Virus record (IMG/VR): IMGVR_UViG_3300020147_000011
Coordinates: 1-57,861 of that record
Strand: one strand, 5' to 3'
DNA from: a virus
Taxonomy: Duplodnaviria; Caudoviricetes
Length of the DNA: 57,861 nucleotides
Within the stretch, counting starts at the first letter, position 1. Each line of letters starts with the position of its first letter. The notes under the pieces are model-generated. The model was given only the letters and a program-made list of their open reading frames with translations, had not been told where the DNA came from and did no database searches. Of the stretch, positions 626 through 36,556 are shown one piece after another. A program made the translations under genes and the position numbers.

Positions 626-1216
626 TCATGAGGACGGTACTAGCGAGAGGCCCAACGCCTTCCGAAGTGTCTGATTCCGTATCTTGGAGTCAAGCCTCAT
701 CAGCCGATCCTGGAATTCCGACGGGGGATGTGCAGCGACCACGCCTTCGTCGGCGACCTTTTGCTTACGATATCCACGCGATTTGCGCGGCCGCCAAATT
801 GGACGTTGCCCATTCTCAACGGCACGCACAATGTCGATTACCTCATCAGCGATCACCACTGGCGTGCCCTCCGATGCGAGAAACTGCATCACGCCGGGCG
901 TCGACCTGATCCTGGTGTAGTTTCGGTCGGTCAGCCACACGAAGACGAACAGATAGCCCGGAAACATCGGCCGGACGATATCAACCTTCCGACCACGCTT
1001 GATCTCGCTCCTCACTTCTTCCGGCAGGTAGATGCCGAACCGGCGGCTTGACAGTTCCTCGGCAACCGCGCGATCCGCATTCGCATAGGTTTCGATCACA
1101 TGCCACGTCGGCTCCAGATTGCCCTTCATCTCGGCATTGCGGTAATCGAGCGTCACAAATGGCCGGGCCAGTTCCGCCATCACGTCCGCCGAAAACGCCT
1201 TCGGTAAGTCGTTCAT
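626..1216 (-). CDS. NusG/RfaH-family (NGN domain) antitermination protein
   Basis: WHVIET...RPMFPGYLFV...IRSTPGV NGN signature; no clear KOW domain. Confidence 0.85.
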   Translation of the reverse strand: MNDLPKAFSADVMAELARPFVTLDYRNAEMKGNLEPTWHVIETYANADRAVAEELSSRRFGIYLPEEVRSEIKRGRKVDIVRPMFPGYLFVFVWLTDRNYTRIRSTPGVMQFLASEGTPVVIADEVIDIVRAVENGQRPIWRPRKSRGYRKQKVADEGVVAAHPPSEFQDRLMRLDSKIRNQTLRKALGLSLVPSS

Positions 1217-10489: not shown

Positions 10490-10866
10490 GCCTCACCTTT
10501 CCGTTCAGCGATGCCCGGACGCATGCGATTGTCGACGCCGGCGAGCTGCAGATGCCAATTCGACAACGCCGCGGCGGTGCTGATCGTATGGTGTTTGGCC
10601 TTCTCGACGTCGCCGTTGATCGCGGACGTCGCGGCCTTCTGCGCGAGATATCCGATCAGCCAGAACCAATCGAGCGGAGCCTTGCCGGCATCGTGGGCGG
10701 CGCCCCAGCGTTCGCGCTGATGTGCGGCCTCCAGCGGGACGCCCCTCATGAAGGCTTCCGTCTCCGGTTTGTTGATCTGCGCCTCCAGCTCGGCAATACG
10801 CTCGCGCAGTGCAGTGACCTCTGCTTCCGAGATCTTCGCTAGACGAAACTCCGCGGCCCTGTTCAT
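10486..10866 (-). CDS. Hypothetical phage protein (possibly MazG-like helical fold)
   Basis: EAAHQRERWG...DWFWLIGYLA.KA; coupled ORF. Confidence 0.6.
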   Translation of the reverse strand: MNRAAEFRLAKISEAEVTALRERIAELEAQINKPETEAFMRGVPLEAAHQRERWGAAHDAGKAPLDWFWLIGYLAQKAATSAINGDVEKAKHHTISTAAALSNWHLQLAGVDNRMRPGIAERKGEA

Positions 10867-11960
10867 GCTGCCTCTCCCGTGAATTCAAGTTCATCTCCCC
10901 AGGACGTCCAGCCCGGCCTTGTCCGCCTTGCCTGCAGCTCGAGGTAATCGCCTTGCGTCAGCCGCTCGATGCGATCGAGCCAGGCGTCGGGCTTGCGCGA
11001 GTGCTCCATGACGGGGGCGACGATCAGCTGGCGGACGTCGGCATAGAGCCGCTTCGGATGGCCCTTGGTGGCGAGCCAGCATTGTTCCGGGTTGGCGCGG
11101 GTCCAGTAGCCCTGCCCCATGTGCCAGGTGGAGTTGTCCCAGATGTCGAGGCCGGTATCGTCGCCGTTGGTCTTGATCCAGGTAAAGGCCGTGGTGACGT
11201 GGCGCAGCCCGTAATGCGCGAGCAGATCGAGCGCGTCCTGCGGGCACCAGTCGACCATCCACATGTAGAAGGCGCCGTCGTCGGCCAGGAGTTCGCCGAC
11301 GGGGAGGTTCTTGATCTTGTCAACCTCCTCGGTCTTGTAGTGGACATTGGCGCTGCGGCCTTCGCCGGCGGCCGAGCGCGTCAGGAATTTCCATTGCGGG
11401 TCGGAACCGATCGAGCCGAACTTGCGGCCCTCGCGCGCCATCCGGCCTAGATCCTCGACACTGCCGCCGTTGATGGTGCGCGCGGCATGCGCGGCGCGGC
11501 GGGTGTCGACCTCGGCGGTCTTGGCGTGCGCCTTCACCGGGTCGATCAGGATGGCGTGGCCGCTTCGCACCTTGTCGCGGGCGCCGGCGACGATGGTTTC
11601 GAATTCCGCTTCGTCGAGCGCTGCGGCGCGCCTGGAGGCGGCCGACAGTTTGTAGTCGACGCCGATGTCCGGCAGCGTCGCCGGGCGCGGAGCATCGTCC
11701 GCCGGGGCAGCCTTGGCCTTGCCGCGCTGGCCGCGGGCGCGTAGTTCGCCGGATTGCTCGGCGGCGGCGAGCTGAGCCCCCAGGTGCCGCTCGGCACGCA
11801 GTTGCAGTTCGGTTGCTTCCGCCAGCAGCTCGCGGTCCTGCACCTTTCGCGCGTAGAGCTTGAGATGGTCGATCAGGTCGCGCACCTCCAGCGTATCCTT
11901 GACCGTGCGGGCCTCGGCGATCGCGGCGCGGGCGCGGTCGTATGCGGCGAGCAGATTCAT
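10863..11960 (-). CDS. MT-A70-family adenine methyltransferase with N-terminal extension
   Basis: SDPQW, GQGYWTRANPE, EHSRKP, LELQARR, GWTSWGDE. Confidence 0.9.
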   Translation of the reverse strand: MNLLAAYDRARAAIAEARTVKDTLEVRDLIDHLKLYARKVQDRELLAEATELQLRAERHLGAQLAAAEQSGELRARGQRGKAKAAPADDAPRPATLPDIGVDYKLSAASRRAAALDEAEFETIVAGARDKVRSGHAILIDPVKAHAKTAEVDTRRAAHAARTINGGSVEDLGRMAREGRKFGSIGSDPQWKFLTRSAAGEGRSANVHYKTEEVDKIKNLPVGELLADDGAFYMWMVDWCPQDALDLLAHYGLRHVTTAFTWIKTNGDDTGLDIWDNSTWHMGQGYWTRANPEQCWLATKGHPKRLYADVRQLIVAPVMEHSRKPDAWLDRIERLTQGDYLELQARRTRPGWTSWGDELEFTGEAA

Positions 11961-11965
11961 GGTGC

Positions 11966-12706
11966 TCAGATGTCTTTCAGCTGGTAGCCGACGCCCTTGA
12001 CGGCGCGCAGGTCGAGGCCGATCGGGGCGAGGCCGCCCTTCAGGTCGGCGGCGATCAGGCGCAGCTGCTCGGCAGCATCGCGCGGCGGCTTGCCGTCCCA
12101 CAGCGCGCCGACCAGGAAGGATTCCGCAACCGGCGCCGGCCGCGGCTTTGCGAGCAGCCGGACGAACTTCGCCTGGCGTGTGGTGACTTCCGTCGCCTTG
12201 CCGTTGAAGGTGATGCTTTCGGAATCGAGCGTCAGATCGATCGTGATGCCGTTGACCGTCTCGCCGACCGGGGCGCTCTGTCTTCGGGCAACCTTGGCCG
12301 GCTCGGTTGGCTTGTCCGGGTTCTTCGCCGGAGGCGGCAACAGCTTCGGGCCGTCATCCGGTGGAATGTCGATCTCGATGCCAGCTTCGACGATGCGCGC
12401 GTCAACCGGCCGCTGCTTGTGCGGCGTCACGCCGATCGCCGGCACCATGCCGAGCCGGAAGAAGAACGCGCCGGTCTTTTTCAGCTCGCGGGCACAGGCG
12501 ACCCCTGCCTTGTCCTTGACGATCCGCAGCTTGCCGACGTCTTCATCGGTGCCGAGCTGCGCGCTGAAGGTGTCCTTGACGTTGAAGCGGGCTTGCGCGA
12601 CCAGGTCCTTGCGCAGCGCCACGACTGTCTTGCCGTTCTGCGTGATGGTGATGCCGGCGGACTTCCTAGGCTGGTTGACCGCGATTTCAATCCGTTCAAA
12701 CGCCAT
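11966..12706 (-). CDS. Hypothetical protein with C-terminal OmpR-like winged helix
   Basis: VTTRQAKFVRLL...LVGALW...LRAVKGVGYQL. Confidence 0.65.
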   Translation of the reverse strand: MAFERIEIAVNQPRKSAGITITQNGKTVVALRKDLVAQARFNVKDTFSAQLGTDEDVGKLRIVKDKAGVACARELKKTGAFFFRLGMVPAIGVTPHKQRPVDARIVEAGIEIDIPPDDGPKLLPPPAKNPDKPTEPAKVARRQSAPVGETVNGITIDLTLDSESITFNGKATEVTTRQAKFVRLLAKPRPAPVAESFLVGALWDGKPPRDAAEQLRLIAADLKGGLAPIGLDLRAVKGVGYQLKDI

Positions 12707-13520
12707 GAAGGTTCCCCGTGGTTGGAAATGCGGATGCGTGGAATTGATCGACGCGCAGCGGGTTGTGGTAACCGGCCGGCAGATACGGCTGCAGATCGAG
12801 CTTGATGTAGTGGCGCTTTCCCAGCGCCTGCAGCTTGTCGATCACGCGCAGCGTGTAGCCGCGCCAGTCCGTAGTTCGGGTGATCTCTTTGAGGTAGTTC
12901 GCGCGGCCGACCTTGTAGAGGTCGACGAATTCATGGGTGGCGTCGACGATCGACAGGCTGGCCTCGATGTCGAGCGTCGGCTCGAGGCTCACCCAGGTGA
13001 AGATGCCGCGATCGTGGAACGCCTTCAGCGCAGCGAGACGGTCAGCGGGCAGCGCGGCGTTGCGCTCCCACTTGCGCGAGAAATCATCGTCGAGCGTCGT
13101 CAGCGTCGACGCGAAGGCGTCGCGATCGGGCCGGAAACGATGGATATCGCGCAGCGCGCGCGTGCCGCCCTTGGTCAGGGTGCAGAAGCCGAGCCCGTAT
13201 CCCTTCAGGACTTCCAGAACGACGCTGGTCAGCGACGTATCGCCAGGGTGGAACGGGTCCGTGGTGAATGAAAGCATGACCTGCTCGGTGATGCCCGCGG
13301 CCTCGTACTTCTCGGCATCGCGCACCAGGTGACGGCGGAAGTCTTTGCGCTCGACGGCGCCGGCGTCGAAGTCCGGCCGGCCTTGCTTGGTCACCAGCGG
13401 CACGTAGCAGTAGGCGCAGCCGTGGCCACAGCCGCGATAGGGATTGGTCGCCAGCGGCGCATACTCGCCGGCCTGCCCCTTGGGCGCATAGATGTAGGTG
13501 CAGCCAGCCACGGACGCCAT
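12696..13520 (-). CDS. Radical SAM protein (SPL-like clade)
   Basis: NPYRGCGHGCAYCYV (CxxxCxxC), SFTTDPF, LTKG, SLEP. Confidence 0.88.
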   Translation of the reverse strand: MASVAGCTYIYAPKGQAGEYAPLATNPYRGCGHGCAYCYVPLVTKQGRPDFDAGAVERKDFRRHLVRDAEKYEAAGITEQVMLSFTTDPFHPGDTSLTSVVLEVLKGYGLGFCTLTKGGTRALRDIHRFRPDRDAFASTLTTLDDDFSRKWERNAALPADRLAALKAFHDRGIFTWVSLEPTLDIEASLSIVDATHEFVDLYKVGRANYLKEITRTTDWRGYTLRVIDKLQALGKRHYIKLDLQPYLPAGYHNPLRVDQFHASAFPTTGNLHGV

Positions 13521-13690
13521 CAGTTCGCCCTCGCCAGCTTCAGCGCGTGCTCGCGCTTGCGCTCGATCAGCAGCGGGCAGTTGTCGCAGGACGCGTGCGG
13601 GCCGGTCCATTCGTCGACCGAAAGCTTGCCGCAGCAGTGGTCGGCTTCTGCCAATGACATCTGGCGCGCGTGGGTGTCGGTGAGGCTCAT
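13520..13690 (-). CDS. Small Cys-rich protein (56 aa, not in ORF track)
   Basis: MSLTDTHARQ...HCCG...SCDNCP; coupled at both ends. Confidence 0.55.
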   Translation of the reverse strand: MSLTDTHARQMSLAEADHCCGKLSVDEWTGPHASCDNCPLLIERKREHALKLARAN

Positions 13691-14118
13691 GTCGCGAGCG
13701 CCCTTTCAACTTCACCCATCGAGACGCAGATGTCGGTTGCGAGCAGAGCCATCAGCTCCGGCTCTTCGCCGTCGCGCGTCAGGATGATGCAGCGCTTGCC
13801 CTGGCCGCAGAACCATCCGGCTTCGAGATGTGCGGACCGGCCGCACGGCAAGGCGAGCAGGCAGGTGTCCGCCCACTGCATGCCACGAAGATCGCTGAGA
13901 AAGCCGGCAGCGGCGATCGGAGAGGTAGTCAGCAGCTGGCGATAGCGCTCCGCCGACCACGCCTGCCATTCCGGATCGATCTGCGACCAGGCGAAGCCCG
14001 GAACGCCGTTGAACGGGTTTCGGAAATCATAGACCTCGTGGCCGAGCGCTCTAAGGCGCTCGACGATTGCGGGTTGGTGCGGGTTGCGCCATGACGACGC
14101 CACGTAAATACGCTTCAT
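13687..14118 (-). CDS. Nucleoside 2-deoxyribosyltransferase-like protein
   Basis: IYVASSWRN...D...ADTCLL...GRSAHLEAGW..G.GK. Confidence 0.75.
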   Translation of the reverse strand: MKRIYVASSWRNPHQPAIVERLRALGHEVYDFRNPFNGVPGFAWSQIDPEWQAWSAERYRQLLTTSPIAAAGFLSDLRGMQWADTCLLALPCGRSAHLEAGWFCGQGKRCIILTRDGEEPELMALLATDICVSMGEVERALAT

Positions 14119-14441
14119 GATCCCCTCGCCTGCTTCTCGTCGTTCAGCGCGCGCCAGGCATCCGCCCGCAGCATCGGCAGCAGGCAGCCGGCCACCATCA
14201 GCCAGGGCGCGCCGGGATCGCGCTCGCCGTCGCGGTAGGCTTCGAGCGCGATCACCATCGCAAGGGCTGCATTGGTGCAGCGGACGCCCTCGGCGGGCCT
14301 GGCGTCGGCGGCGCGGACTTCCTGGGCGACCGTAATGAAGCGGTCGTCGACGATGTTGCCGGCGAGCGAAAGCCCGTGGCGGGTGACGACGTTGCCTGAG
14401 ATCGTGATCAGCTCGGTGAGCGTCTTCGATAGCTCCCTCAT
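14115..14441 (-). CDS. Hypothetical protein
   Basis: Coupled ORF. Confidence 0.6.
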   Translation of the reverse strand: MRELSKTLTELITISGNVVTRHGLSLAGNIVDDRFITVAQEVRAADARPAEGVRCTNAALAMVIALEAYRDGERDPGAPWLMVAGCLLPMLRADAWRALNDEKQARGS

Positions 14442-14848
14442 GGCGCATAGCCTCCGGATTGCTTCAGCTCGTTCGCCTCGGAGCGCACCAGCTCGACCAG
14501 CGCGCCCATCACGTGCATCCAGCGGTCCTGGCGGGCGCTGCCGGCGTCTGATTGTGCCGCTCCCATCAGGGCGACCACCAGCAGCCGCGCCGGATCGAGG
14601 ATTGCGCGGGCCGCGGGATCATCGGGGGCGGCGACCAGTTCGCAGGTCACCGCGCGCGCATTGGCGAGCGCCTGGGCTGCGTCATGGCGGCCGTCGAGCA
14701 GCGCTGTGGCATGCGCCACGACCTTGGCGCCGAGGAAGTTGGCATGCTCGGCGGGCGTGAAATTGGAATAGAGGGTGGTTCTACCGAGCACGGCGTTCAC
14801 TCCCTGATAAGGTGCGGGCAGCGGCGGCCCCTTGAGAGGACTTTCCAT
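14438..14848 (-). CDS. Hypothetical protein
   Basis: Coupled ORF. Confidence 0.6.
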   Translation of the reverse strand: MESPLKGPPLPAPYQGVNAVLGRTTLYSNFTPAEHANFLGAKVVAHATALLDGRHDAAQALANARAVTCELVAAPDDPAARAILDPARLLVVALMGAAQSDAGSARQDRWMHVMGALVELVRSEANELKQSGGYAP

Positions 14849-15092: not shown

Positions 15093-15302
15093 TCAAGCCG
15101 GAAACTTTTCCCAGCGCGCGAGCTGGGCGGATTGGCGCAGATAACCGTCGAGCGCTTCGGTCAGCGGCTTGGCTTCCGGGGCGTTGTGCGGCATCACGCG
15201 CAGCGCCTGGTGCACGAGCAGTTCGGCGGCGAGGATGCGCAGTTCGGAAACGATGTTCATCAGCATGACGTGCGTCCCGGTGTGAGAGACAAGACGGCTC
15301 AC
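15093..15302 (-). CDS. Hypothetical protein
   Basis: 69 aa ORF in operon orientation. Confidence 0.45.
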   Translation of the reverse strand: MSRLVSHTGTHVMLMNIVSELRILAAELLVHQALRVMPHNAPEAKPLTEALDGYLRQSAQLARWEKFPA

Positions 15303-15532
15303 GCTCGGAAATAACCGGGCGGGCCAGAGGTTTTCGATTTCAGGGGTACGCAGTGATGCTACTGGAACTAGGAGCGAGAGATCAGCTATCGGAGCCGGCG
15401 ACCCTCGCGAATTTCAGGTGACGATGGCGCCGTCCGGTAAGCACAGAGCGTCCGGACGGCCAGGATCAGCGCATTGATGATTAACCAGGCGACGATGATC
15501 TTGGCGAAGAGGATCATGCGGCCCTCCGAATT

Positions 15533-15745
15533 AGGTGAGCGTCTCTCCGCCCTGTCGCGTCCATTATCTCAGACGTTGCAGGCTGAACCGCGACAGCCTC
15601 GCCTACTCGCAACCCCGTTCCGGCGGTCGATCGTCTTACGGGGCCCGTGACCCCAGCCGTTCCGGCTTTGCCTCTGGTTGCTTTCGCCAGGGATTCATCT
15701 GAAGTTGCAGGCGAGCCGCCATCGGCTCCTTTTCGGAAACCGCGA
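15533..15745 (-). ncRNA. Candidate structured RNA domain (possibly GOLLD-like 3' domain; may extend to ~16163)
   Basis: Long-range complementarities 15704-15715/15598-15613, 15696-15703/15568-15575 and 15589-15596/15552-15559; GAAA-capped hairpins; terminal GGGCG-GAGAGA-CGCTC hairpin. Family assignment is from memory only. Confidence 0.55.
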
Positions 15746-15827
15746 TCGCGGACGCCGCCGGCGTCACAATCGCCGGTGACAGGCGGGGATAAGGCCCCGC
15801 TGCGATCCGAAAGGAGGTGATGACACC

Positions 15828-15989
15828 ATGCGGAAGCATGGCGGTGCACCGAAGCATGTTCACGTCCGACGGTATGCCCAATGGCGACGGGGAAAGCGCA
15901 CGAGAGTGGGAGACCACCCGCGCGGCGCCAATCCGAAGCCGGCAAGCAGACCGAGCCCAGGGCAACTTGAACTGTTCGATGACGAATGA
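15828..15989 (+). CDS. 53-aa basic small protein ending in a QLELF clamp-binding-like motif (not in ORF track)
   Basis: Perfect SD AAGGAGGTGA at 15811-15820; MRKHGGAPKHVHVRRYAQWRRGKRTRVGDHPR...GQLELFDDE*. Confidence 0.7.
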   Translation: MRKHGGAPKHVHVRRYAQWRRGKRTRVGDHPRGANPKPASRPSPGQLELFDDE

Positions 15990-16163
15990 CGGGACTCGCA
16001 ATCCCATCACCCCGATGGCGGCTCACCATCCGGTCAATTGATGCGCAGGAAATGAAAACGAGACGTGCACTGAGTGCCGCGAGGGATCGGTCATCGGCAC
16101 CGAGGTGCTTACGGCCTTTCCGCTGGGGGCCGGGCAGGCCGTACCAGACGCCTCTCTGGGTAT

Positions 16164-16547
16164 TCAGATTTTCCTGATGGCAACCCCAAACCGTACCTCT
16201 CCGGTCGCGGCTTGACGCATTGTGCGTCGGCGATGGCAATTCGCACACCGAACCTCGCATTTGGCCATCTCGGCGCGAACTCGACCCAGCGTCTTCCTGC
16301 CACGCCGCGCCTCCGCCATTGTGAACAACTTGAGCTTTGGGTTTCTGTGGTCGAATTCGAGAACAATCGGGTCGGCCTCGCCACAGTCCACGCAGGGATG
16401 CGTGCTCAAGTGATCGAGCAGAAGGCTCTTTACTGCGCCAACAAGGAGTCGGTTCTTCGCCATACTCCGCGCCGACTCTCTCGCAATGTTTCTGTGATAG
16501 TAAGCGCGCTGGCGCGCACGTTTTTTGATCGGGTCTTCGTACCCCAT
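16164..16547 (-). CDS. Free-standing HNH endonuclease
   Basis: PCVDCG...LEFDH...KCEVRCANCHRRRT. Confidence 0.88.
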   Translation of the reverse strand: MGYEDPIKKRARQRAYYHRNIARESARSMAKNRLLVGAVKSLLLDHLSTHPCVDCGEADPIVLEFDHRNPKLKLFTMAEARRGRKTLGRVRAEMAKCEVRCANCHRRRTMRQAATGEVRFGVAIRKI

Positions 16548-16594
16548 GCCAACATCCTAAACTAGACGAGCCTTGCCAGGTGCCACTCGGGCAT

Positions 16595-16843
16595 TCAGTC
16601 GCCAAGGATCGCGCCATGGAGCGCGTACATGGCCTTGGCATTCGGCTTGCGCTTGCCGTCGATGAGAAAACTCGCGTGGCGCTTCGTGCATTTCGCACGC
16701 TGCGCGAGGCCGGCAACCGGATCATCGGGCCAGAGCGCCCAGACGACGAGACCGAACCTAGAAAGATTTTCGCGACGCGGATGAACAGTTGTTCCGATGT
16801 TCCGGCTTGGCCGCTGCCGCCGCTGATTCGAAATTGTTCCCAT
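16595..16843 (-). CDS. CII-like HTH protein
   Basis: LAQRAKCTKRHASFLIDGKRKP HTH-like; first gene after cro. Confidence 0.5.
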   Translation of the reverse strand: MGTISNQRRQRPSRNIGTTVHPRRENLSRFGLVVWALWPDDPVAGLAQRAKCTKRHASFLIDGKRKPNAKAMYALHGAILGD

Positions 16844-17144
16844 GAATGAACTTCCCCACGCCACAACACTGTCGATCGAACTGGAAACGAAGCTGCGCAA
16901 TACTGCGGCGTATCTCGGCGCGCATCACGCATCGGTTGAATTGCGTTGCATTGACTCGCATAGCGAGTCCCAATTCGAAACAGAGGCGCAACGCCGCAGC
17001 CGAAAGGTGCAGATCGAATTAGGTTCACAAACCCGAAATGGTTGTCATACACTGTCCCCTCAACCGGCGTCCGGCGGCGGGCGGTCGCCCCTCTGTTGGG
17101 GGTATAAGAACAATGGGAATAGTGGTTTGCTTTCCGAGGCCGCG

Positions 17145-17402
17145 TCATGTCCGGGCCTCATCGAAACTGTTTGCCTGTCGACGCGCCGCGACCTCAGCCA
17201 AGATTTCAAGAGTGATTTCATTTTTGCCGGCTTCACCTGCCAGCTTGACGACGGCCGCCCAATGCTTTCCCGGGATGCCGCCGGGCCGTGATCGCCAGCC
17301 GCTGACCGTGGATGCAGACTCTCCGAGCCCCTCGGCAACACCCTTGGTGCCGCCGATGGCGTCAATGACCGAGCCCCATGTCCAATCCGAATCACTTGTC
17401 AT
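17145..17402 (-). CDS. Cro-like repressor
   Basis: VIDAIGGTKGVAEGLGESASTVSGWR..GIP; divergent from cI. Confidence 0.85.
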   Translation of the reverse strand: MTSDSDWTWGSVIDAIGGTKGVAEGLGESASTVSGWRSRPGGIPGKHWAAVVKLAGEAGKNEITLEILAEVAARRQANSFDEART

Positions 17403-17410
17403 GCACCAAG

Positions 17411-17479
17411 AAATAGTTCGCATTTCGCGAACCTGTCAAGACTACGCAACTTGCGAAACGACATTTCGCGAGTCGCGTG
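17411..17479. promoter_or_regulatory. Three operators (TTCGC-N5-GCGAA) and divergent cro/cI promoters
   Basis: Sites at 17417-17431 (perfect), 17443-17457 and 17465-17479; minus-strand TTGACA at 17434-17439. Confidence 0.8.
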
Positions 17480-17493
17480 TTCGAATATCCACC

Positions 17494-17823
17494 ATGGATA
17501 GTGATGTGGATGTTGGCCGCCGGTTGATCGCATTTCGCGAGTCCCGGGGCATGAACCAGGTCCAATTGGCCGGCGAGCTCAATATCGCAAAAAACACGCT
17601 CAATGGATACGAAACCGGCGAGCGCCCATTACCAGCTGAAAAAGCGAAGAGAATCCGCGAGCGGTTCGGCATCTCGCTGGACTGGCTGCTTTATGGAGAT
17701 ATCGGCCAGCCAGGCTATGAGATCGCGGTAAAACTAGGCCCCAAGCCAAGTATCAAGGCCGACACCAAGGCGGCCCCGGCCCAGAAGACGCCAGCAAAGC
17801 GCAAAAAATCTGCGAACCGGTAA
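17494..17823 (+). CDS. XRE-family phage repressor (cI-like), no peptidase domain
   Basis: RESRGMNQVQLAGELNIAKNTLNGYETGER...SLDWLLYG. Confidence 0.9.
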   Translation: MDSDVDVGRRLIAFRESRGMNQVQLAGELNIAKNTLNGYETGERPLPAEKAKRIRERFGISLDWLLYGDIGQPGYEIAVKLGPKPSIKADTKAAPAQKTPAKRKKSANR

Positions 17824-20272: not shown

Positions 20273-20664
20273 CCAACCTTTCCGCATCAGGCATCGAGGA
20301 CGTCCCCCCCCACGTCCTAGCCGCCTTCGAGGGACACCCGCATCTGACGATGCCGCATCTCGCTAAGGTCCTGGAAATGGACAGGAAGACGCTGGACCGG
20401 CACCGGGAGGCCGATAATCTGCCCGTGCATATCAAGGGAACCGGGCTTGAGCGCCGGCACTATGTCTGTACGTTGGCCGACGTTGCCGAGTTCTACCGCC
20501 GCACGGGGCCAGCATGTCAGTATTCCGCGTCAAGGGATCGCCCTACTTCCAGTTCGATTTCCAGCTCCAAGGTCATCGCTTTTACGGGTCCACGCGGTGC
20601 ACGAATGAACGTGAGGCCCGCGAAGACGAGAAGGCCCGCCGGGCAGAGGCCGCCGTCCTCGTAA
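20269..20664 (+). CDS. Probable excisionase (HTH), overlapping the integrase start
   Basis: LTMPHLAKVLEMDRKTLDRH...LADVAEFY; 151-nt overlap with int. Confidence 0.7.
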   Translation: MTNLSASGIEDVPPHVLAAFEGHPHLTMPHLAKVLEMDRKTLDRHREADNLPVHIKGTGLERRHYVCTLADVAEFYRRTGPACQYSASRDRPTSSSISSSKVIAFTGPRGARMNVRPAKTRRPAGQRPPSS

Positions 20665-21659
20665 AGCAGGCGCTCGCCGCCGGCCGCAAGCCGATGACGT
20701 TCGGCGCCGCCTGCGATCGCTGGTGGGACCAGGTTGGCAGCCACGGCAGCGATCCCGACCTCAAGCGCGCGCTGGACTGGCTGAAGGATCAGATCGGCCA
20801 TCAGGTGGCCCTGCACACCGTCAACGACGACATGGTTTCCCGGGCCGTGGAAGCCCGCAGGAAGTGCGTCATGCGCGCCGGCCGCGATGCAAAGGGCACG
20901 CAGCTCTACCGCCCCCTCTCCGCGCGCACGGTCAACAAGACCGTACCCAGCCTGCTCCGCCGCGTTATGAACCGGGCGCGCAAGGCCTGGTCGGTCGCGA
21001 TCCTGGTCGAGCCGAACTGGAAAGAGCACTTCCTCGCCGAGCGGAAGCGGCCGGTGCGCGAGATCACGGCCGCGGAAGATGCCGCGCTCGACGGGATCGA
21101 AAGCCTTGAGTATGCCGGGCTGCGCGAGTTCGCCGAGATCATGGGCCTGCGGCGGAAGGAACTGCTGCTCACCTGGCCGCAGGTCGATTTCGACAAGGCC
21201 ACCATCAGCATCATCGGCAAGGGCGGCGTGCCGGCGATCCTGCCGCTCACGAAGCGGGCCTATCACATCCTCTGGGGCCTGCGCGGGCACGACAAGATGC
21301 ACGTCTTCACCTTCGTGGCCCAGCGCACCAGGCGCTGCCCGAAGACCAAGCGCGACTTCGTCAAGGGCCAACGCTACCCGATGACCTATTTCGGCATCGG
21401 CACCAACCGGCGCAGGAAGTGGTCCAAGGCGGGCGTGGATGCGCGGCTGCACGACACCCGCCACACGACAGGCCAGCGCGCGCTGCGCACCACGGGCAAC
21501 CTGCGGCTCGTACAGCAGCTGCTCAGGCACACCGAGATCCGGACCACCGCGAAGTTCTACACCGACACTACTATGGCGGACCTGCGGGCTGGGATGGAGG
21601 CCGTCGAACAATCAAAGCCTGCAAAGCCCGATCAACCAAAAAAGGTGACTGGCGAATGA
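20514..21659 (+). CDS. int: Tyrosine recombinase (phage integrase)
   Basis: GLRRKE, IIGKGG, LHDTRHT, LLRH..IRTTAKFY. Confidence 0.95.
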   Translation: MSVFRVKGSPYFQFDFQLQGHRFYGSTRCTNEREAREDEKARRAEAAVLVKQALAAGRKPMTFGAACDRWWDQVGSHGSDPDLKRALDWLKDQIGHQVALHTVNDDMVSRAVEARRKCVMRAGRDAKGTQLYRPLSARTVNKTVPSLLRRVMNRARKAWSVAILVEPNWKEHFLAERKRPVREITAAEDAALDGIESLEYAGLREFAEIMGLRRKELLLTWPQVDFDKATISIIGKGGVPAILPLTKRAYHILWGLRGHDKMHVFTFVAQRTRRCPKTKRDFVKGQRYPMTYFGIGTNRRRKWSKAGVDARLHDTRHTTGQRALRTTGNLRLVQQLLRHTEIRTTAKFYTDTTMADLRAGMEAVEQSKPAKPDQPKKVTGE

Positions 21660-24416: not shown

Positions 24417-24721
24417 TGGGCGCCAGTTTCGCCGTGTCGCCGCTGATCCTGTCCGCGATCTGCGTGGCGGAGAGGGATGGCAATCCGCCGATGACCGCCG
24501 ACGAGATTGCCTTCATGCTCGAATTGCCGCGGGAATTTATTGACCCCGCCCTGGATCAGCTGGTCCGGAACGGCTCGATTGTGCGCGCTGGCGACCATTA
24601 TCGCTATGACAAAGACCGATCGCTCACCGCATCCGAACTGGCCGAGATCGAACTGCTCCACGACGAATTGCAGGCGATCGTTCCCCTTCTGGAAGCAATT
24701 CCGCCGCGTCTGGACAGTTGA
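24416..24721 (+). CDS. Winged-helix protein
   Basis: MTADEIAFMLELPREFIDPALDQLVRNG. Confidence 0.6.
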   Translation: MGASFAVSPLILSAICVAERDGNPPMTADEIAFMLELPREFIDPALDQLVRNGSIVRAGDHYRYDKDRSLTASELAEIELLHDELQAIVPLLEAIPPRLDS

Positions 24722-24741
24722 GGGTCAGTCAATCCCCGCTC

Positions 24742-25335
24742 ATGTTGAAGTTTGAGTATTGCAAGCCGGTCAACGCCAAGGCCGTTCCGACCGGCGACGA
24801 ATGGATTCACGAGGTCAAATACGACGGCTACCGCGGGCGCATCGTCCGCGACGGCCGTGACGTCAAGCTGCTGTCGAAAAGCGGCCTCGACTGGGCCTGG
24901 CGCTTTCCGTGGATCGTCGAGACCGCGCTGAAGATCCGGCAGAGCCAGTTCATCATCGACGGCGAGATCTGCGTGCTCGACGTCCAGGGCATCTCCGATT
25001 TCAACGCCCTGCATTCGAACAAGCACAATGACGAAGCGCAGCTTTACGCGTTCGACCTGGTATCGATCGGCGGGGAGGATCTGCGCGACGTGCCCCTGCT
25101 CGATCGCAAGGGCCGGCTGGAAAAGCTGCTACGCCGCCGCGTACAGGGAATCTTCATGGCGCCCTTCGAGCGCGGCGAGATCGGGCCGGACCTCTTCACC
25201 GCCGCCTGTCGCATGCGGCTCGAGGGCATCGTGTCAAAGCACGAGGGGCGGCGGTACCGGGCCCGCACCTGCGACTGGGTCAAGGTGAAGAACCGACAGC
25301 ACCCGGCGTTCGCCCGGGTGATGGACCAGTTCTGA
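24742..25335 (+). CDS. ATP-dependent DNA ligase, adenylation domain only
   Basis: HEVKYDGYR, IDGE, YAFDL, LEGIVSK, WVKVK; no OB domain. Confidence 0.88.
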   Translation: MLKFEYCKPVNAKAVPTGDEWIHEVKYDGYRGRIVRDGRDVKLLSKSGLDWAWRFPWIVETALKIRQSQFIIDGEICVLDVQGISDFNALHSNKHNDEAQLYAFDLVSIGGEDLRDVPLLDRKGRLEKLLRRRVQGIFMAPFERGEIGPDLFTAACRMRLEGIVSKHEGRRYRARTCDWVKVKNRQHPAFARVMDQF

Positions 25336-33296: not shown

Positions 33297-34799
33297 TTAG
33301 ATTTCCGCCAAAGCGGCGGGATCAACCAGGATCCAGGAGAACAGCACGGTGCCCGTCAAAAGGTCGATCGTTGGCGACGGCTGGATCTCGACCACGCAAT
33401 CCTCGAGATCGGCGAGGAACGGATACTGCACCTTGACCCAGCGCTTGCCGAAGTATCGCAGGCCGATCAGTTTGGTGGTGAACGTGCCCGATCGGCGCGG
33501 GTTGAGCCGCTGCAGCGCCCGGCCGGCCAGCCGCTCGGCCTGCGCTTCCGACTGCACCCAGGTCAGCGAAAGCGGCTTCGGCCGCTCGGCGCCGAGTTCG
33601 GAAATCGATATTTCGTCGCGCACGTCATCGAGCGCGGCGCTGACGAATTTCTGCGCCGGATCGGTGAAACTGACATTGAGCACGTTAATGATCTGCTCAT
33701 CAGCCTGGCCACAGTGCAGGCTGACGCCGACGATATCATGCTCGGTCAGCGGCGGCTCGGTCGGCTCGCGATAGACCCCGACCGTCAGCGACAGCGTGCC
33801 GTCGCCGGCCTCGGCCAGCCAGCCGTCGCAGGTCGACAGGATCGAATTGATCACGTCCTCCGGCGAGGTGTCATAGCGAAACCAGCCGTCGGAGACGTAG
33901 CGCGGCGCGCCCTCGACCAGCGCGTCGCACAGATCGGCCTCGACCATCCATTGCGCCAGCACGTCCGGCGGAAACACAATGTCGAGATCCTGCCCCATGC
34001 CGCCATCCTCGCGCGTGACGTAATCGATCAGCTCGAGCACCGGGTTTGATTTCGTCACCCACGTCGAAGGATCGCCAAAACTCTGCGCGCCGTCGCGCGG
34101 ATCCCAGATCGGCGAACAGTTCGCCACCACCGACAATTCGGGACGGCCTCGTGGGTAAATGCGGCTATGCTCCGATGGATCGCCGATGCCGGCACAGATG
34201 ATGCCGGCATAGGCAATGCCGTCCCCGCGGTGTGTGCTGTCCCATCCCACAATGCTCGACATTGCCGTTTGCGATGCGTCCCCGAGCCGAATCTGTATCA
34301 ACACGGGGTGTCCTGTGCCGCCGGAGGGTATCTGATAAGAGCCATCCGATAGCCCTTGCACTTCGCCGGCAGACAAACCGCCATTTAGAACAGAAGGAAT
34401 CGTCGATATCGAATCGTCGCTCAAATACATGCCGAGCAGCGAATCGATCTTGCCGGAATGAAACGCGATCACGTCATAGGACTGTGCGGGAGGCCCGCCG
34501 GAATCCGAGGCCTCGAAATACATATAGGCGCCGGCGAGCCTGTTAATGCCGTAGCCGCGCTGCCGCGCCGGGATCGACTGCCGGATTGCCTGCGAACCAT
34601 CCTCCGGCCGAGGTGCCCCCGGCGTGCCGTTGAGCGCGTATTGCAGCCCGATCGACGCGCCGATGATCGCGGCACTGCCGACGATCGTCGTTAGCCCGAC
34701 GCCGACAACGGTCGTCGACGCCAGGGCGAAGCCGGCCGGACCAGTGACGCCGGCGGCCGCCACGGCGTTGATGATCAGAAGGCCTACCGCTTCAGCCAT
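33297..34799 (-). CDS. Tail tip/hub protein (gpJ-like)
   Basis: RQRGYG..RLAG, WDPRD, SNP.L..DY, QAERLA. Confidence 0.8.
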   Translation of the reverse strand: MAEAVGLLIINAVAAAGVTGPAGFALASTTVVGVGLTTIVGSAAIIGASIGLQYALNGTPGAPRPEDGSQAIRQSIPARQRGYGINRLAGAYMYFEASDSGGPPAQSYDVIAFHSGKIDSLLGMYLSDDSISTIPSVLNGGLSAGEVQGLSDGSYQIPSGGTGHPVLIQIRLGDASQTAMSSIVGWDSTHRGDGIAYAGIICAGIGDPSEHSRIYPRGRPELSVVANCSPIWDPRDGAQSFGDPSTWVTKSNPVLELIDYVTREDGGMGQDLDIVFPPDVLAQWMVEADLCDALVEGAPRYVSDGWFRYDTSPEDVINSILSTCDGWLAEAGDGTLSLTVGVYREPTEPPLTEHDIVGVSLHCGQADEQIINVLNVSFTDPAQKFVSAALDDVRDEISISELGAERPKPLSLTWVQSEAQAERLAGRALQRLNPRRSGTFTTKLIGLRYFGKRWVKVQYPFLADLEDCVVEIQPSPTIDLLTGTVLFSWILVDPAALAEI

Positions 34800-35229
34800 G
34801 GTGATAAGCCTCCAGCAGCGGCAGCCGATCCTGATCGGCAATGACGATGCCAAGATCTGACGTGATCACCGCCAGCAGGCGATCCGAAACGCAGATCGCG
34901 CCGGTCGGCCGGCGCAGGATCCGGCCCTGCCGAACCGCATACGGCGCCATCACGACGGCGATATCGCCGCCCGCCGGCGCCGGCGTCGGCGCATAGCCGA
35001 CGGCCGCAAGTCGCCTGGCGCACGATCTGGCAAATCCGCCCTCGCGGCGCAGGATCCGGCGGAACTCGCGTTCGCTCGAATAGGTGCCACGCACGTCGGC
35101 GATCGGATCGACGCCGCGAACGGCCATCACCCAATCGGCCATGAACACGCCGCAGTCGAGCGCGCCCGGCTGCCAGCGCCGGCCGGCAAGCGACGAGAGA
35201 TAGTTTTTCAACCTGGGAATGTCGGCCAT
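34792..35229 (-). CDS. NlpC/P60-like tail protein (DUF6950-like)
   Basis: WQPGALDCGVFMADWV...G.DP...RGTYS. Confidence 0.8.
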   Translation of the reverse strand: MADIPRLKNYLSSLAGRRWQPGALDCGVFMADWVMAVRGVDPIADVRGTYSSEREFRRILRREGGFARSCARRLAAVGYAPTPAPAGGDIAVVMAPYAVRQGRILRRPTGAICVSDRLLAVITSDLGIVIADQDRLPLLEAYHHG

Positions 35230-35822
35230 TTCTTGTTGAAGTTGTTGGCATAGCGCGCCGTGAATTCGCAGAACGCGTCGCCGGGCGAGCGCGCCTGCTG
35301 GTCGCGGTCGGAGAAATAGGAAAAATTCGGCCGCCGCCGCGACGTCAGCAGCGATCCGCATGACAGCGTGACGGTCCGCACGATCGACGCCTGCGGATCG
35401 GTGACCGGCGGCTGGTCGATCGACAACCGGTCGGCGCGATAGGTCGCCAGCCAGCGCGGCGGACCGAGCAGCTGCCACGCACCGGACAGGATGCCGAAGC
35501 CGACCGCGACCCGCTTGCCCTTGACCTCGTCGGCGTCCTGGTTGGCGGCGATCTGCAACACCTCGCCCGAAACGCCCGACAGCGTGAACTCGACCCGCTG
35601 CGCCGCGCCGTTCATGATCTGGTTGAATGACGGCAGGTCGCGCAGCTCACCGAACCCGACATATTCCGCGCCGTCTGGATCGAACACATTGCTGGCCGCG
35701 CGGATATTGCCGAAGCCAAGCCAAAGCCGCACTACCGGGTCGGTATCGAGCCTGAAGAACGCGGCGATGTTCTGCACGCCGGATTGCAGCGCCGCGATTT
35801 CGGCATCGTTGAAATTGATCAT
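35208..35822 (-). CDS. Minor tail protein (gpL-like)
   Basis: RLWLGFG...YVGFG...DQQARSPGD.FC. Confidence 0.75.
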   Translation of the reverse strand: MINFNDAEIAALQSGVQNIAAFFRLDTDPVVRLWLGFGNIRAASNVFDPDGAEYVGFGELRDLPSFNQIMNGAAQRVEFTLSGVSGEVLQIAANQDADEVKGKRVAVGFGILSGAWQLLGPPRWLATYRADRLSIDQPPVTDPQASIVRTVTLSCGSLLTSRRRPNFSYFSDRDQQARSPGDAFCEFTARYANNFNKKWPTFPG

Positions 35823-35824
35823 GG

Positions 35825-36556
35825 CTATGCCGACTCGACGAAATCGACACTGGCCGAATTGAAGGTCCACGGCACGACGCTCAGATCCATCGATCCCGGA
35901 TTTGCCAGCCGCATCCTGCAGCGTGGCCGATCGAATTCCAGCGGCGTCCCGGCCTCGATCGACTCGCGCAAAGGCGGGTTGAACGTGATGGTCGCCGTCG
36001 TGCTCGACGTCATGTCGACGGTCGCGATCTCGTAAAGCCGCCAGTCCATCGTATCATGCGCGATCGAGAACGACTCGCCGCCGATCAGTTCGCCGGCATA
36101 ATTGAGCGTGATATCCATACTGGTCGCGCGCAGGTCCACCGCGTCCGTCGCCTCGATATCGATCACCGACTGGTAGTATCCGGCTCCGTCATCGAACAGG
36201 GTATCGTCCGCGTGCGCGATATCGATGCCGGCGGTCTGCGAGACGCCGGCCGGCCACGGCCGGAACAGCGTGTCATTGCGCCAGACGATGATCGGCGTCA
36301 CGCCGCCGTTGCATATCTGCCGGACCGCGCGCCACAGCAGCGTCGAGATCCGCTGCCGCTGCCTGCCCTGCGAGCCCGGCAGTCCGCCCGACAGACTGAC
36401 GTCCGACATCGAGCATTTCCAAAAGCCGCCGCCGTCGCTCCTCGTCAGAACGGAAACACTGTTGGCCGTATCGCCTGGCGTCGCGGCGACGCCGGCCAGA
36501 TTCCAGCTGTGGCTTTTCTCGCGCAGCAGCAGTCGCGGGAAATGAACCGTCATCAA
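35825..36556 (-). CDS. Distal tail protein
   Basis: Follows the tape measure gene; FNPPLR...EFDRP.C.MRL. Confidence 0.7.
   Translation of the reverse strand: MMTVHFPRLLLREKSHSWNLAGVAATPGDTANSVSVLTRSDGGGFWKCSMSDVSLSGGLPGSQGRQRQRISTLLWRAVRQICNGGVTPIIVWRNDTLFRPWPAGVSQTAGIDIAHADDTLFDDGAGYYQSVIDIEATDAVDLRATSMDITLNYAGELIGGESFSIAHDTMDWRLYEIATVDMTSSTTATITFNPPLRESIEAGTPLEFDRPRCRMRLANPGSMDLSVVPWTFNSASVDFVESA

Follow-up and report, generated by a model that had tools for sequence, protein, structure and literature searches.

The 631 nt at positions 15533–16163 of the window (the whole stretch of viral DNA that was analysed, 57 861 nucleotides) are probably a patchwork, lying in a prophage early operon, of a core RNA on the sense strand, a cassette carrying a gene on the opposite strand, and a second folded module, M2. 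This level of confidence applies to what the region is and is kept apart from any mechanism. The core (∼170 nt) is likely to belong to a previously undescribed family of structured RNAs of ∼165–230 nt, as judged from sequence comparison; supplements to RNA-motif surveys may list the motif under another name. The initial annotation had proposed one candidate pseudoknot-rich RNA of ∼630 nt on the sense (minus) strand of the early operon, with a 3′ end that might resemble GOLLD. A structured RNA on that strand was upheld for the 3′ end, which is conserved and covarying, and for the 5′ end, where the second folded module lies, and not for the whole stretch: the conserved units measure ∼170 nt and ∼115 nt and occur elsewhere separately or in swapped order. 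The parts of the region and its neighbours were located as follows, L-numbers (L174, L224 etc.) denoting collected homologous loci.

16595–16900, minus strand: short ORF of the early operon (101 aa); in L270, L199 and L196 a comparable short ORF stops precisely where the RNA element begins.
16164–16547, minus strand: free-standing HNH endonuclease gene (127 aa; phrog_2255 at 1.4e-23).
16048–16163, minus strand: M2, predicted multi-branched fold closed by GAGGCGU (16154–16148) and ACGUCUC (16066–16060).
16012–16027, no strand assigned: left arm of a 16-nt inverted repeat; sharp 5′ limit of the conservation shared with L226, L228 and L246.
15828–15989, plus strand: predicted gene for a 53-aa basic protein, antisense to the early operon, with a Shine-Dalgarno sequence AAAGGAGGTGA at 15810–15820.
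15710–15725, no strand assigned: right arm of the 16-nt inverted repeat, identical in all four cassette loci; includes the CUCGCC drawn earlier as part of a long-range stem.
15528–15697, minus strand: core structured RNA element (type A form); the model match covers 15577–15697, and the 3′ domain reaches the conserved AAUUC at 15532–15528.
15386–15517, minus strand: downstream 43-aa hydrophobic ORF, whose Shine-Dalgarno sequence GGAGGG (15527–15522) begins 1 nt past the AAUUC of the element.

Conserved blocks with variable spacers first showed in L174, and members of the family were collected mainly by exact scans for two of these blocks, B1 and B2. B1 was located 54–73 nt upstream of B2 in ten of 11 viral B2 matches, compared with two of 23 genome matches, the other genome matches being due to chance. 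Because the blocks served as exact search patterns, the way of collecting accounts for part of their invariance; the covariance model alone contributed just two members (L261 and L289). This model, R1, recovered all 47 collected loci at E ≤ 1e-5 (junk loci > 0.05) and scored 143 bits on the core (E about 2e-31). The 47 matches include 42 distinct ones, which together with the phage ppBdUSDA122-1 make 43 distinct instances; the DNA came from phages, prophages and soil metagenomes. The carriers are prophages and temperate phages whose hosts are soil Alphaproteobacteria; hosts named for other members are Bradyrhizobium, Rhodopseudomonas, Bosea, Chelatococcus and Reyranella. The family is rare (one of 130 genomes of the source virus's own order; two of 151 in a Bradyrhizobium-centred family sample), and the core was present in a single copy in every genome searched. 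Direct DNA similarity to the region was found neither in phages, plasmids, 61 relatives and 69 genomes of the genus nor in the rest of its own genome, and no match to the conserved blocks was found in the literature consulted.

The predicted fold of the core was assigned from the aligned members, with the following elements.

15668–15687, minus strand: block B1, GCGAAAGCAACCAGAGGCAA, near-invariant in all members; holds the 5′ strand of helix H1 (GCAACC, 15681–15676).
15598–15614, minus strand: block B2, GGUUGCGAGUAGGCGAG; holds the 3′ strand of helix H1 (GGUUGC, 15614–15609), and its GAGUAG faces the GAAA of B1.
15620–15665, minus strand: tentative long-range helix X, CCGG (15665–15662) with CCGG (15623–15620); encloses Hb.
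15640–15654, minus strand: hairpin Hb, GGGGUC-acg-GGCCCC; five of six pairs changed on both sides.
15581–15598, minus strand: hairpin Hc, GGCUG-ucgcgguu-CAGCC; double changes in all five pairs, and in three of five on MAFFT alignment A7.
15557–15576, minus strand: helix Hd, ACGUC ... GACGC; near-invariant, 95 % paired, no double change.
15537–15552, minus strand: terminal hairpin He, GGGCG-GAGAGA-CGCUC, whose GAGAGA loop is invariant; four of five pairs double-changed (MAFFT alignment of 16 type-A members).

Three predicted hairpins are strongly supported by covariation and a fourth helix tentatively. In the model-fitted alignment of the 42 distinct rows, 97.6 % of cells were paired (83.6 % after shuffling), double changes occurred in 14 pairs (6.3 after shuffling) and the covariation score was 0.325 (0.098 after shuffling); none of 500 shuffles reached the observed value, and slid controls gave 28–51 %. 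Structure-blind MAFFT alignments agreed in direction (A3, 94.1 % versus 86.1 %; A7, 95.7 % versus 80.7 %). The check for covariation in homologues proposed at the outset was answered by pairs kept through compensatory changes, above all 500 shuffles and all slid controls. G.U pairs were frequent on the minus strand (UG 19, GU 9 and others, set against 2.4 % unpaired cells), and their placement points to this strand as that of the RNA. About 45 nucleotides of the core are near-invariant, and the unpaired ones are highly conserved.

Helix H1 (GCAACC/GGUUGC) had 99 % of its pairs kept, the sole change being G-C to G.U in nine sequences; in L261 and L289 one base pair was deleted on both sides. 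It adjoins a conserved internal loop rich in purines (GAAA facing GAGUAG), which may resemble a loop-E/sarcin-ricin-type motif. Hairpin Hb remained 100 % paired on the structure-blind MAFFT alignment, with four double-change pairs. Helix X was 94 % paired with double changes in all four pairs on the model-fitted alignment, compared with 88.5 % and no double change on the structure-blind one; it is tentative and rests mainly on the former. A closing helix, P1, convincing by eye in a few members, was rejected: the duplex energies were −13.6 kcal mol−1 for own flanks and −13.9 kcal mol−1 for cross combinations, and no covariation was found in this own-versus-cross duplex test, in which 3816 of 5000 permutations were equally good.

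Every sequence quoted in the initial annotation was found on the minus strand where it had been placed, and the local hairpins drawn there fared better than the long-range stems. The hairpin given as AGGCUG/CAGCCU was borne out as GGCUG/CAGCCU (Hc; 15598–15594/15585–15581), and it covaries among homologues, as does the terminal hairpin He, which had been drawn correctly. The local hairpin AGCCG-GAA-CGGCU proved weaker, with 84 % of cells paired family-wide and one pair broken in 16 of 36 sequences; helix X (94 %) competes with it. Neither 5′ long-range partner, CUCGCCUGCAAC (15715–15704) or UUCAGAUG (15703–15696), lies within the conserved element: the first is present in four of the 42 distinct members, the second is not conserved among them, and GUUGC, the proposed mate of the first, pairs instead with the invariant GCAACC at 15681–15676. 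The Hc loop bears a conserved CGCGG, for which a pseudoknot had been proposed; its partner CGCGAC overlaps helix Hd, and the two pairings compete. This pseudoknot alternative was 77.5 % paired, its 4-bp invariant CGCG/CG(C/U)G core being kept in 15 of 16 sequences and the U-A extension in two of 16.

Single-sequence folding is weak evidence here. The whole 631 nt gave z = −2.9 on the minus strand (20 shuffles only) and −1.55 on the plus strand, and 16048–16163 gave −2.81 and −0.37, respectively; for the 168-nt 3′ core alone z was +0.11, and 111 of its 200 shuffled versions folded equally well.

A protein-coding role for the core was rejected. B1–B2 spacings of 54, 55, 56, 57, 58, 64, 73, 75, 76 and 79 nt were seen, the blocks were invariant at all codon positions, and the best sense frame was open in only 30 of 42 members. 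The 544-aa minus-strand ORF that spans the flagged region (15514–17148) was rejected as a gene and is a shadow frame (low GC3, no Pfam hit, codon position 2 most variable). The earlier statement that the minus strand holds no convincing ORF stands in this respect; it had overlooked the 53-aa gene on the plus strand. A conserved coding signal, which had been named as evidence against an RNA, was accordingly lacking in the core, which shows no conserved frame, and was found in the middle segment, which evolves as a plus-strand gene.

This middle segment belongs to the cassette (16027–15710; ∼320 nt) that separates M2 from the core and is absent from 38 of 42 members; as the comparison of loci indicates, it has entered a minority of phages, immediately 5′ of the core. 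The arms of its inverted repeat are complementary at 15 of 16 positions, and the mismatch is a G.U on the minus-strand RNA. The 53-aa frame, ending in QLELFDDE, was intact and free of indels in all four loci, and its variable columns were distributed over the codon positions as 18/11/34 (chi-square p = 0.0013), the flanks being flat (12/11/9 and 5/5/5). Frame, Shine-Dalgarno sequence and third-position bias, taken from only four sequences, indicate that 15828–15989 is a real protein gene. Searches for homologues of its product gave no valid pattern-scan match, nothing by tblastn in plasmids or phages, nothing in a 5.8-billion-protein collection, and two marginal matches in genomes of the genus, both within long unrelated ORFs.

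M2 is a second, rarer module with a predicted fold and a terminator-like U-tract (16059–16048), with which it ends. It is 88–90 % identical in L224 and L225 and occurs also in L263; in these three loci it is placed directly 3′ of the core, whereas at the studied locus it lies upstream. Its inner hairpin covaries (GGCC/GGCC, AGC/GCU, UCC/GGA). Only four long-form copies are known, and block scans for further ones returned these alone. The HNH gene, flanked by the small upstream ORF and M2, is missing from related loci; its relatives are scattered over many phyla at ≤ 60 % identity. None of about 160 HNH-relative loci compared carries the RNA region or anything resembling it, and the HNH gene is therefore regarded as an independent mobile gene.

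The core is co-oriented with its flanking genes and is placed among unrelated genes, whether the operon is an early, a replication or a late structural one; the genes downstream are varied (cII-like, replication initiator, head-tail adaptor, tail chaperone, tRNA). An upstream stop codon was found within −9 to +12 of the element start in nine of 43 instances, compared with 2.9 % at random positions; of the three loci with a small ORF ending at this start, only the L270 product was matched to the 101-aa ORF, by eye. In at least eight loci the downstream gene starts 10–100 nt away. A same-strand tRNA-Met follows shortly downstream in seven of 41 related loci, and the whole window contains no tRNA. 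In ppBdUSDA122-1 the element begins two codons past the end of the MT-A70 domain, with no stop codon before it: residues 1–369 of the coding sequence align to the MT-A70 gene of the studied phage, which stops eight codons later, and downstream of this point nothing is homologous. Since an open frame runs through the element in ppBdUSDA122-1, L194 and L251, translation through it may occur there. The long ORFs of these three loci had suggested an intron or in-frame insertion, which was rejected because the flanks are separate genes by profile coordinates.

Known RNA classes were compared by using the 4227 Rfam families (GOLLD, ROOL, HEARO and introns included). Nothing matched in the window at the gathering score. 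At E ≤ 10, positions 15200–16500 gave only noise of 12–17 bits (TLS-PK3, symR, an lncRNA fragment) and no GOLLD, and in 12 diverse homologous loci tRNA was all that appeared at E ≤ 0.1. The covariance-model check suggested initially was thus run with no match to any of the named classes, and the GOLLD idea is unsupported, there being no GOLLD match in the stretch or in the homologous loci. ROOL and HEARO were likewise discarded for want of a covariance-model match, as were group I and group II introns, for which, in addition, no single gene is interrupted. A generic riboswitch was rejected: the downstream genes are unrelated, and no conserved terminator or alternative pairing sequestering a Shine-Dalgarno sequence was found.

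For the function, we tentatively infer that the core may be an intercistronic RNA-processing or 3′-end element, possibly self-cleaving. It would act in cis on the polycistronic transcript, defining a processing site or 3′ end, and would make the upstream cistron independent of the sequence after it. It is doubtful, if conceivable, that it represents a new catalytic or ligand-binding RNA class, either a new self-cleaving ribozyme at stop codons of phage genes or a compact ornate RNA, formed jointly with M2, of alphaproteobacterial phages. Where an open frame crosses the element, self-cleavage would leave an upstream message without a stop codon.

A stable ncRNA, acting in trans or self-assembling, is a further possibility of which we are sceptical. 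It would be cut from the operon transcript like the neighbouring tRNAs and would then associate with a factor of the host or the phage, or assemble from RNA alone, in a role like that of GOLLD and ROOL without homology to them. The same-strand tRNA-Met of seven loci, a setting independent of gene function, the conservation of unpaired nucleotides and a modular build in which M2 stands 5′ or 3′ of the core are consistent with such a product, and the U-tract of M2 behind the core in L224, L225 and L263 would give it a discrete 3′ end. However, an element whose start often coincides with the upstream stop codon leaves no space for a promoter, and the studied region yielded no promoter-like site. 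The window is also without a tRNA, and 170 nt with no Rfam match is far below the size of known ornate RNAs.

The core is unlikely to serve as a sensor or antiterminator in cis, whether as a riboswitch-like aptamer, as a translational operator or as a put-like RNA that engages RNA polymerase, with the following gene or terminator as its target. The Shine-Dalgarno sequence of the next ORF 1 nt past the element, the start codons 10–100 nt downstream at several loci and the terminator-like M2 behind the core in L224, L225 and L263 would suit this reading, as would the position just past cro/HTH genes in many loci, which is nut/put-like. In L235 the element directly follows a NusG-like antiterminator gene, and the studied phage encodes the same PHROG family; yet NusG-like genes are not enriched (eight of 15 element-bearing viral contigs versus two of five related element-less ones; three of six among element-bearing contigs ≥ 90 % complete). 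Moreover, the genes that follow have no function in common, M2 precedes the core at the studied locus, and a conserved alternative helix involving a Shine-Dalgarno sequence or a terminator was not found.

A DNA-level feature (a small mobile element, recombination site or replication origin, whose hairpins matter as DNA) is highly improbable. The patchy occurrence in different intergenic slots of otherwise unrelated modules, the insertion exactly at gene ends, and the HNH homing-type endonuclease gene and inverted-repeat cassette adjoining the core at the studied locus would fit a mobile element, but the pairing is strand-asymmetric (the many G.U pairs of one strand are A.C on the other), the element is always co-oriented with transcription and single-copy in every genome searched, and the core is flanked by no visible terminal repeats or target duplications. 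A single GOLLD-related, pseudoknot-rich RNA of ∼630 nt can practically be dismissed: the whole region folds somewhat better than its shuffles (z = −2.9, 20 shuffles), the inverted repeat would close the cassette as a stem and bring M2 and core together, and tRNAs adjoin some related loci, but GOLLD, ROOL and HEARO are unmatched even at E ≤ 10, the three segments occur independently in other phages, the middle one evolves as a plus-strand protein gene, and 38 of 42 members do without it.

New ribozymes, riboswitches and RNA-protein machines come mainly from covarying RNA classes rich in invariant nucleotides, and phages of soil Alphaproteobacteria have so far contributed few such classes. The present family offers 43 distinct examples with a well-defined fold and an unusual position right where the upstream gene ends, in differing operons. 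One member resides in the cultured, inducible phage ppBdUSDA122-1, whose host, Bradyrhizobium diazoefficiens USDA 122, is a laboratory strain, and the RNA is therefore directly testable. The region also illustrates that a "gap" in a phage operon can conceal a small antisense protein gene and mobile modules besides RNA.

Compared with known systems, M2 shares with intrinsic (rho-independent) terminators a G+C-rich closing helix followed directly by a U-tract. It differs from them in that its "loop" is a conserved, apparently multi-branched fold of ∼80 nt and that M2-like domains in L200 and L212 have no U-tract; M2 was not flagged by a simple terminator scan. The nut and put sites of lambdoid phages lie just after cro-type genes, and the core resembles nut sites and the HK022 put RNA in its early-operon position past cro-type and small ORFs and in a purine-rich hairpin loop. 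Unlike these, it is also found in replication and late structural operons, occurs once per phage, is much larger and more conserved, and shows no link to phage NusG-like antiterminators.

GOLLD is contiguous and ∼800 nt long, GOLLD and ROOL measuring roughly 600–800 nt, and in phages GOLLD adjoins tRNA genes. The units found here, ∼170 and ∼115 nt long, are far from the sizes of these RNAs, and the core has no model match. GOLLD and ROOL are Rfam families of large ornate RNAs of phages and prophages (see also bioRxiv 10.1101/2024.12.08.627333); the core, too, is phage-borne, has multiple conserved hairpins and, in seven of 41 related loci though not in the window, adjoins a tRNA, whereas its alphaproteobacterial hosts and its location within operons, abutting stop codons, set it apart. 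Small self-cleaving ribozymes, for example hammerheads, are reported to occur between phage and prophage genes (PMC3088659). Whereas the core matches no known ribozyme model, is larger than most of them and has no stop codon before its copy in ppBdUSDA122-1, it resembles phage hammerhead-type ribozymes in being intergenic, co-oriented with the flanking genes and patchy in distribution, and in carrying invariant unpaired nucleotides around short covarying helices.

The window is one entire contig (C125) of an 8.1-Mb assembly of 456 contigs with 7.3% contamination, and its genome is that of a temperate tailed phage. A long early operon on the minus strand encodes an HNH endonuclease, a nucleoside deoxyribosyltransferase, a radical-SAM protein, an MT-A70 methyltransferase, a primase, a D5-type helicase and a NusG-like antiterminator; packaging, head and tail genes are placed beyond it. 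The flagged stretch (15533-16163, minus strand) lies within this operon, between the HNH gene (16164-16547) and a 43-aa ORF (15386-15517). Further landmarks are:

20514-21656, integrase
~17440-17823, plus strand, CI-like repressor with HTH
17145-17423, minus strand, Cro/YdaS-like gene, divergent from the CI-like repressor
626-1216, minus strand, NusG-like "transcription antiterminator" at the end of the early operon (PF02357, phrog_6386)
24718-25335, plus strand, protein with an ATP-dependent DNA/RNA ligase domain, close to the prophage's integrase side (PF01068, PF09414)

The nucleoside deoxyribosyltransferase-like protein (phrog_12607), radical-SAM protein and MT-A70 methyltransferase are clustered at 10863-14448 (minus strand), which suggests phage DNA modification. 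Beyond the NusG-like gene, a ~295-nt gap without a called gene (331-625) is followed by a second HNH gene (55-330) and then, across the contig ends, by terL. This gap is the expected site of a late promoter and an antiterminator loading site; R1, the covariance model of the RNA core described below, found no match in it.

Direct DNA searches with the flagged stretch gave no hit in phages, in plasmids, in 61 relatives, in 69 genomes belonging to the genus or in the window's own genome. Relatives of the HNH gene number in the hundreds and are scattered, but none of ~160 HNH loci fetched resembled the flagged region. A search from the flanking early gene 13687-14448 brought up 21 related viral contigs. 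One of these, L174, has the cI/cro region in common with the window; at the equivalent place it is poor in ORFs and carries three blocks that match the window's 3′ part exactly, with intervening spacers that differ in length. These blocks were then used as exact search patterns. Block B1 (15687-15668) was located 54-73 nt upstream of block B2 (15614-15598) in 10 of 11 viral B2 hits, compared with 2 of 23 hits in genomes (the others were chance matches). B1 scans and a two-block metagenome scan brought the set to 47 loci; the invariance of B1 and B2 is partly by construction, because both served as search patterns. Named hosts are Bradyrhizobium sp. YR681, Bradyrhizobium sp. Pha-3, Rhodopseudomonas infernalis and Bosea sp. 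CRIB-10, and the core was also found in MAGs of Chelatococcus, Reyranella and Hyphomicrobiales.

The conserved core is a structured RNA of ~170 nt (15697 to 15528, minus strand). R1 (121 positions, 21 pairs) was built from 13 equally spaced members; it recovered 47/47 loci at E ≤ 1e-5, chance loci staying above E = 0.05, and matched the window at 15577-15697 (minus strand) with 143 bits. In the model-fitted alignment of 42 distinct rows, 97.6% of cells paired (83.6% in shuffles), 14 pairs were changed on both sides (6.3 in shuffles) and such cells numbered 98 (21.4 in shuffles); none of 500 shuffles reached any observed pairing measure, and a slid-partner control gave 28-51% pairing. Because this alignment was fitted to the model, pair counts were repeated on structure-blind MAFFT alignments. 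The seed alignment A3 was 94.1% paired (shuffled 86.1%); in it, hairpin Hb reached 100% pairing with four double-change pairs. A7 (3′ domain, 16 members of the window's form, type A) was 95.7% paired (shuffled 80.7%). Helix H1 (GCAACC 15681-15676/GGUUGC 15614-15609) is near-constant, its sole changes being G-C to G.U, and G.U pairs are frequent on the window's minus strand. L261 and L289, which were detected with the model and not through the search patterns, lack one H1 pair on both sides. Outward of H1, GAAA stands opposite GAGUAG, followed by two further G-C pairs. The long-range CCGG/CCGG helix is called tentative, because it has no double change on the structure-blind alignment A3, and a closing helix that looks plausible by eye in some members was negative in an own-versus-cross duplex test. 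Thermodynamics by itself says little for this region: folding z-scores were −2.9 for the whole 631 nt (20 shuffles), +0.11 for the 168-nt 3′ part and −2.81 for the 5′ 116 nt (minus strand only).

Coding potential of the core was considered and rejected: B1-B2 spacing takes ten values (54-79 nt) and keeps no single frame, the blocks vary at no codon position, and no more than 30 of 42 members keep the best sense frame open. The initial annotation, which proposed one ~630-nt pseudoknot-rich RNA without a convincing minus-strand ORF, was partly right. Its quoted sequences all occur at their coordinates, and a minus-strand structured RNA whose pairs covary beyond shuffles (42 distinct rows) is real, but it extends over ~170 nt, with a separate 115-nt module, rather than 630 nt. 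An ORF of 544 aa (15514-17148) does cross the region, but it is a shadow frame: it is rich in R/S/A/G, has low GC at third positions and no Pfam hit, and codon position 2 is the most variable in the only part with comparative data. Homologues bear out the AGGCUG/CAGCCU hairpin and the terminal GGGCG-GAGAGA-CGCUC hairpin, whose GAGAGA loop is invariant. The local hairpin AGCCG-GAA-CGGCU is paired in 84% of cells across the family, less than the CCGG/CCGG helix (94%). Two other long-range pairings find no support as traits of the family, their 5′ partners falling outside the element (CUCGCCUGCAAC in 4/42 members, UUCAGAUG not conserved), and the proposed pseudoknot keeps an invariant core of only 4 bp and competes with helix Hd.

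The remainder of the flagged stretch contains an insertion and a second module. Window positions 16036-15578 are 78-82% identical to L226, L228 and L246, with a sharp onset of conservation at the left arm of a 16-nt inverted repeat (16027-16012/15725-15710), both arms of which are identical in all four loci. Between the arms lies:

15828-15989, plus strand, 53-aa ORF with a strong Shine-Dalgarno sequence

This ORF is intact and without indels in 4/4 loci; its variable columns by codon position number 18/11/34 (p = 0.0013; flanks flat), and window and L246 differ at 20 synonymous and 15 non-synonymous codons. Its pattern of change is therefore that of a protein gene, which runs antisense to the early operon and was overlooked by the initial annotation; no homologue was called in any database searched. 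Since 38 of 42 members are without this cassette (16027-15710), it is an insertion beside the core and outside the RNA family. The protein is basic and has QLELFDDE at its C-terminus (QLDLFDHE in the three relatives); this resembles the pentapeptide with which many proteins bind the bacterial sliding clamp, so that it may be a clamp-binding peptide of the phage. Upstream of the gene, a perfect 12-bp palindrome, CCGCGATCGCGG (~15740-15751), is kept in 4/4 loci. At 15992-16006 the cassette holds a near-copy of the B2 start at 15603-15617 (GGGAUUGCGAG versus GGGGUUGCGAG; repeat D8). Because the cassette's right end, CUCGCCUGCAAC, is complementary to B2 (the first helix of the initial annotation), the cassette might compete with H1 in its four loci; in L246, a G-to-A change in that end is matched by C-to-U in B2.

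The second module, M2, corresponds to 16163-16048 (minus strand); L224 and L225 each contain a stretch with 88-90% identity to window 16165-16055, and the module is present in L263 too. M2 folds as a multi-branched domain with a GAGGCGU/ACGUCUC closing helix, then a U-tract, and its inner hairpin covaries (four copies). It directly follows the core in L224, L225 and L263, an M2-like domain without the U-tract directly precedes the core in L200 and L212, and L193 has a short form. Block scans for additional copies found none. M2 is thus a second, rarer module able to sit 5′ or 3′ of the core.

The core is single-copy in the window's own genome and in each of five named genomes. It is rare, occurring in 1/130 genomes of the window's order (the window's own) and in 2/151 of a sample taken at family level around Bradyrhizobium sp. 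Pha-3. Flanking ORFs that passed a GC3 filter were annotated with PHROG, which gave these settings:

L190, L196, L199, L228, L247: early operons beside CI-type repressors
L191: before a cII-like gene
L194, L251: between methyltransferase, helicase and replication-initiator genes
L232: after terS
L235: after a NusG-like antiterminator gene, before late genes
L200, L212: between major head and adaptor genes
L261, L264: between tail tube and downstream tail genes

Flanking genes run in the same direction as the core. An upstream gene-like frame ends at −9 to +12 nt of the core's first base in 9/43 instances (2.9% for randomly chosen positions within those loci), and in several loci the upstream stop codon is the core's own UGA or UAG. 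A phage-encoded, same-strand tRNA-Met (CAT) lies ~70-460 nt downstream in 7/41 loci (L196, L224, L226, L228, L243, L246, L247), directly after M2 in L224; no tRNA was found in the window. Six loci (L272, L265, L274, L266, L269, L238) share a sequence ~20-60 nt after the core, ...CAGUUCGGGCG-CGGCCUUGGCAUCCA-CAGCCCGGGUCAAUGACAU..., which may mark a further conserved RNA or else the beginning of a conserved gene. The window phage and L235 carry NusG-like antiterminators of the same PHROG, and a link of the core to such genes was rejected for lack of enrichment: 8/15 core-bearing viral contigs have one (3/6 of those at least 90% complete), against 2/5 related contigs with confirmed absence of the core.

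Bradyrhizobium phage ppBdUSDA122-1 (OP596612.1, complete genome) has a divergent core (L289, 32.8 bits), annotated within a 659-aa CDS (34080-36059) with no stop codon intervening. The MT-A70 domain ends at aa 369 and the core starts at aa 372; aa 1-369 align to the window's MT-A70 gene, whose stop is eight codons later, and the core therefore again lies where the upstream gene would naturally end. The GenBank CDS takes in the methyltransferase, the RNA element and a region of 234 aa that belongs to no known family, and represents either true translation through the RNA or an annotation fusing two genes.

Any function must explain why the fold is compact and contains many unpaired bases that do not vary, why the core is strictly co-oriented and lies between unrelated cistrons, often in contact with the stop codon upstream, and why tRNA genes or the U-tract-bearing module are occasionally nearby. 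We tentatively rank first that the core would act as an intercistronic processing or 3′-end-defining element, possibly self-cleaving. A stable processed non-coding RNA, ranked after a processing element, is a doubtful account of the same facts, and a cis-regulator such as a sensor or antiterminator an unlikely one. A role at the DNA level is improbable. The single GOLLD-like RNA of the initial annotation is the least credible, given the ~170-nt extent and the absence of a GOLLD match in the Rfam scan of the window.

Rfam 15 (4227 models) gave no match in the whole window at gathering score, and only 12-17-bit noise over 15200-16500 at E ≤ 10; GOLLD, ROOL, HEARO and intron models therefore do not match. 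The literature, at the level of abstracts, yielded no description of the motif, searches with the conserved blocks as strings included. The core is a real structured RNA, apparently undescribed, and its GAAA/GAGUAG internal loop looks akin to the loop-E/sarcin-ricin-type motif, of which it is a candidate.
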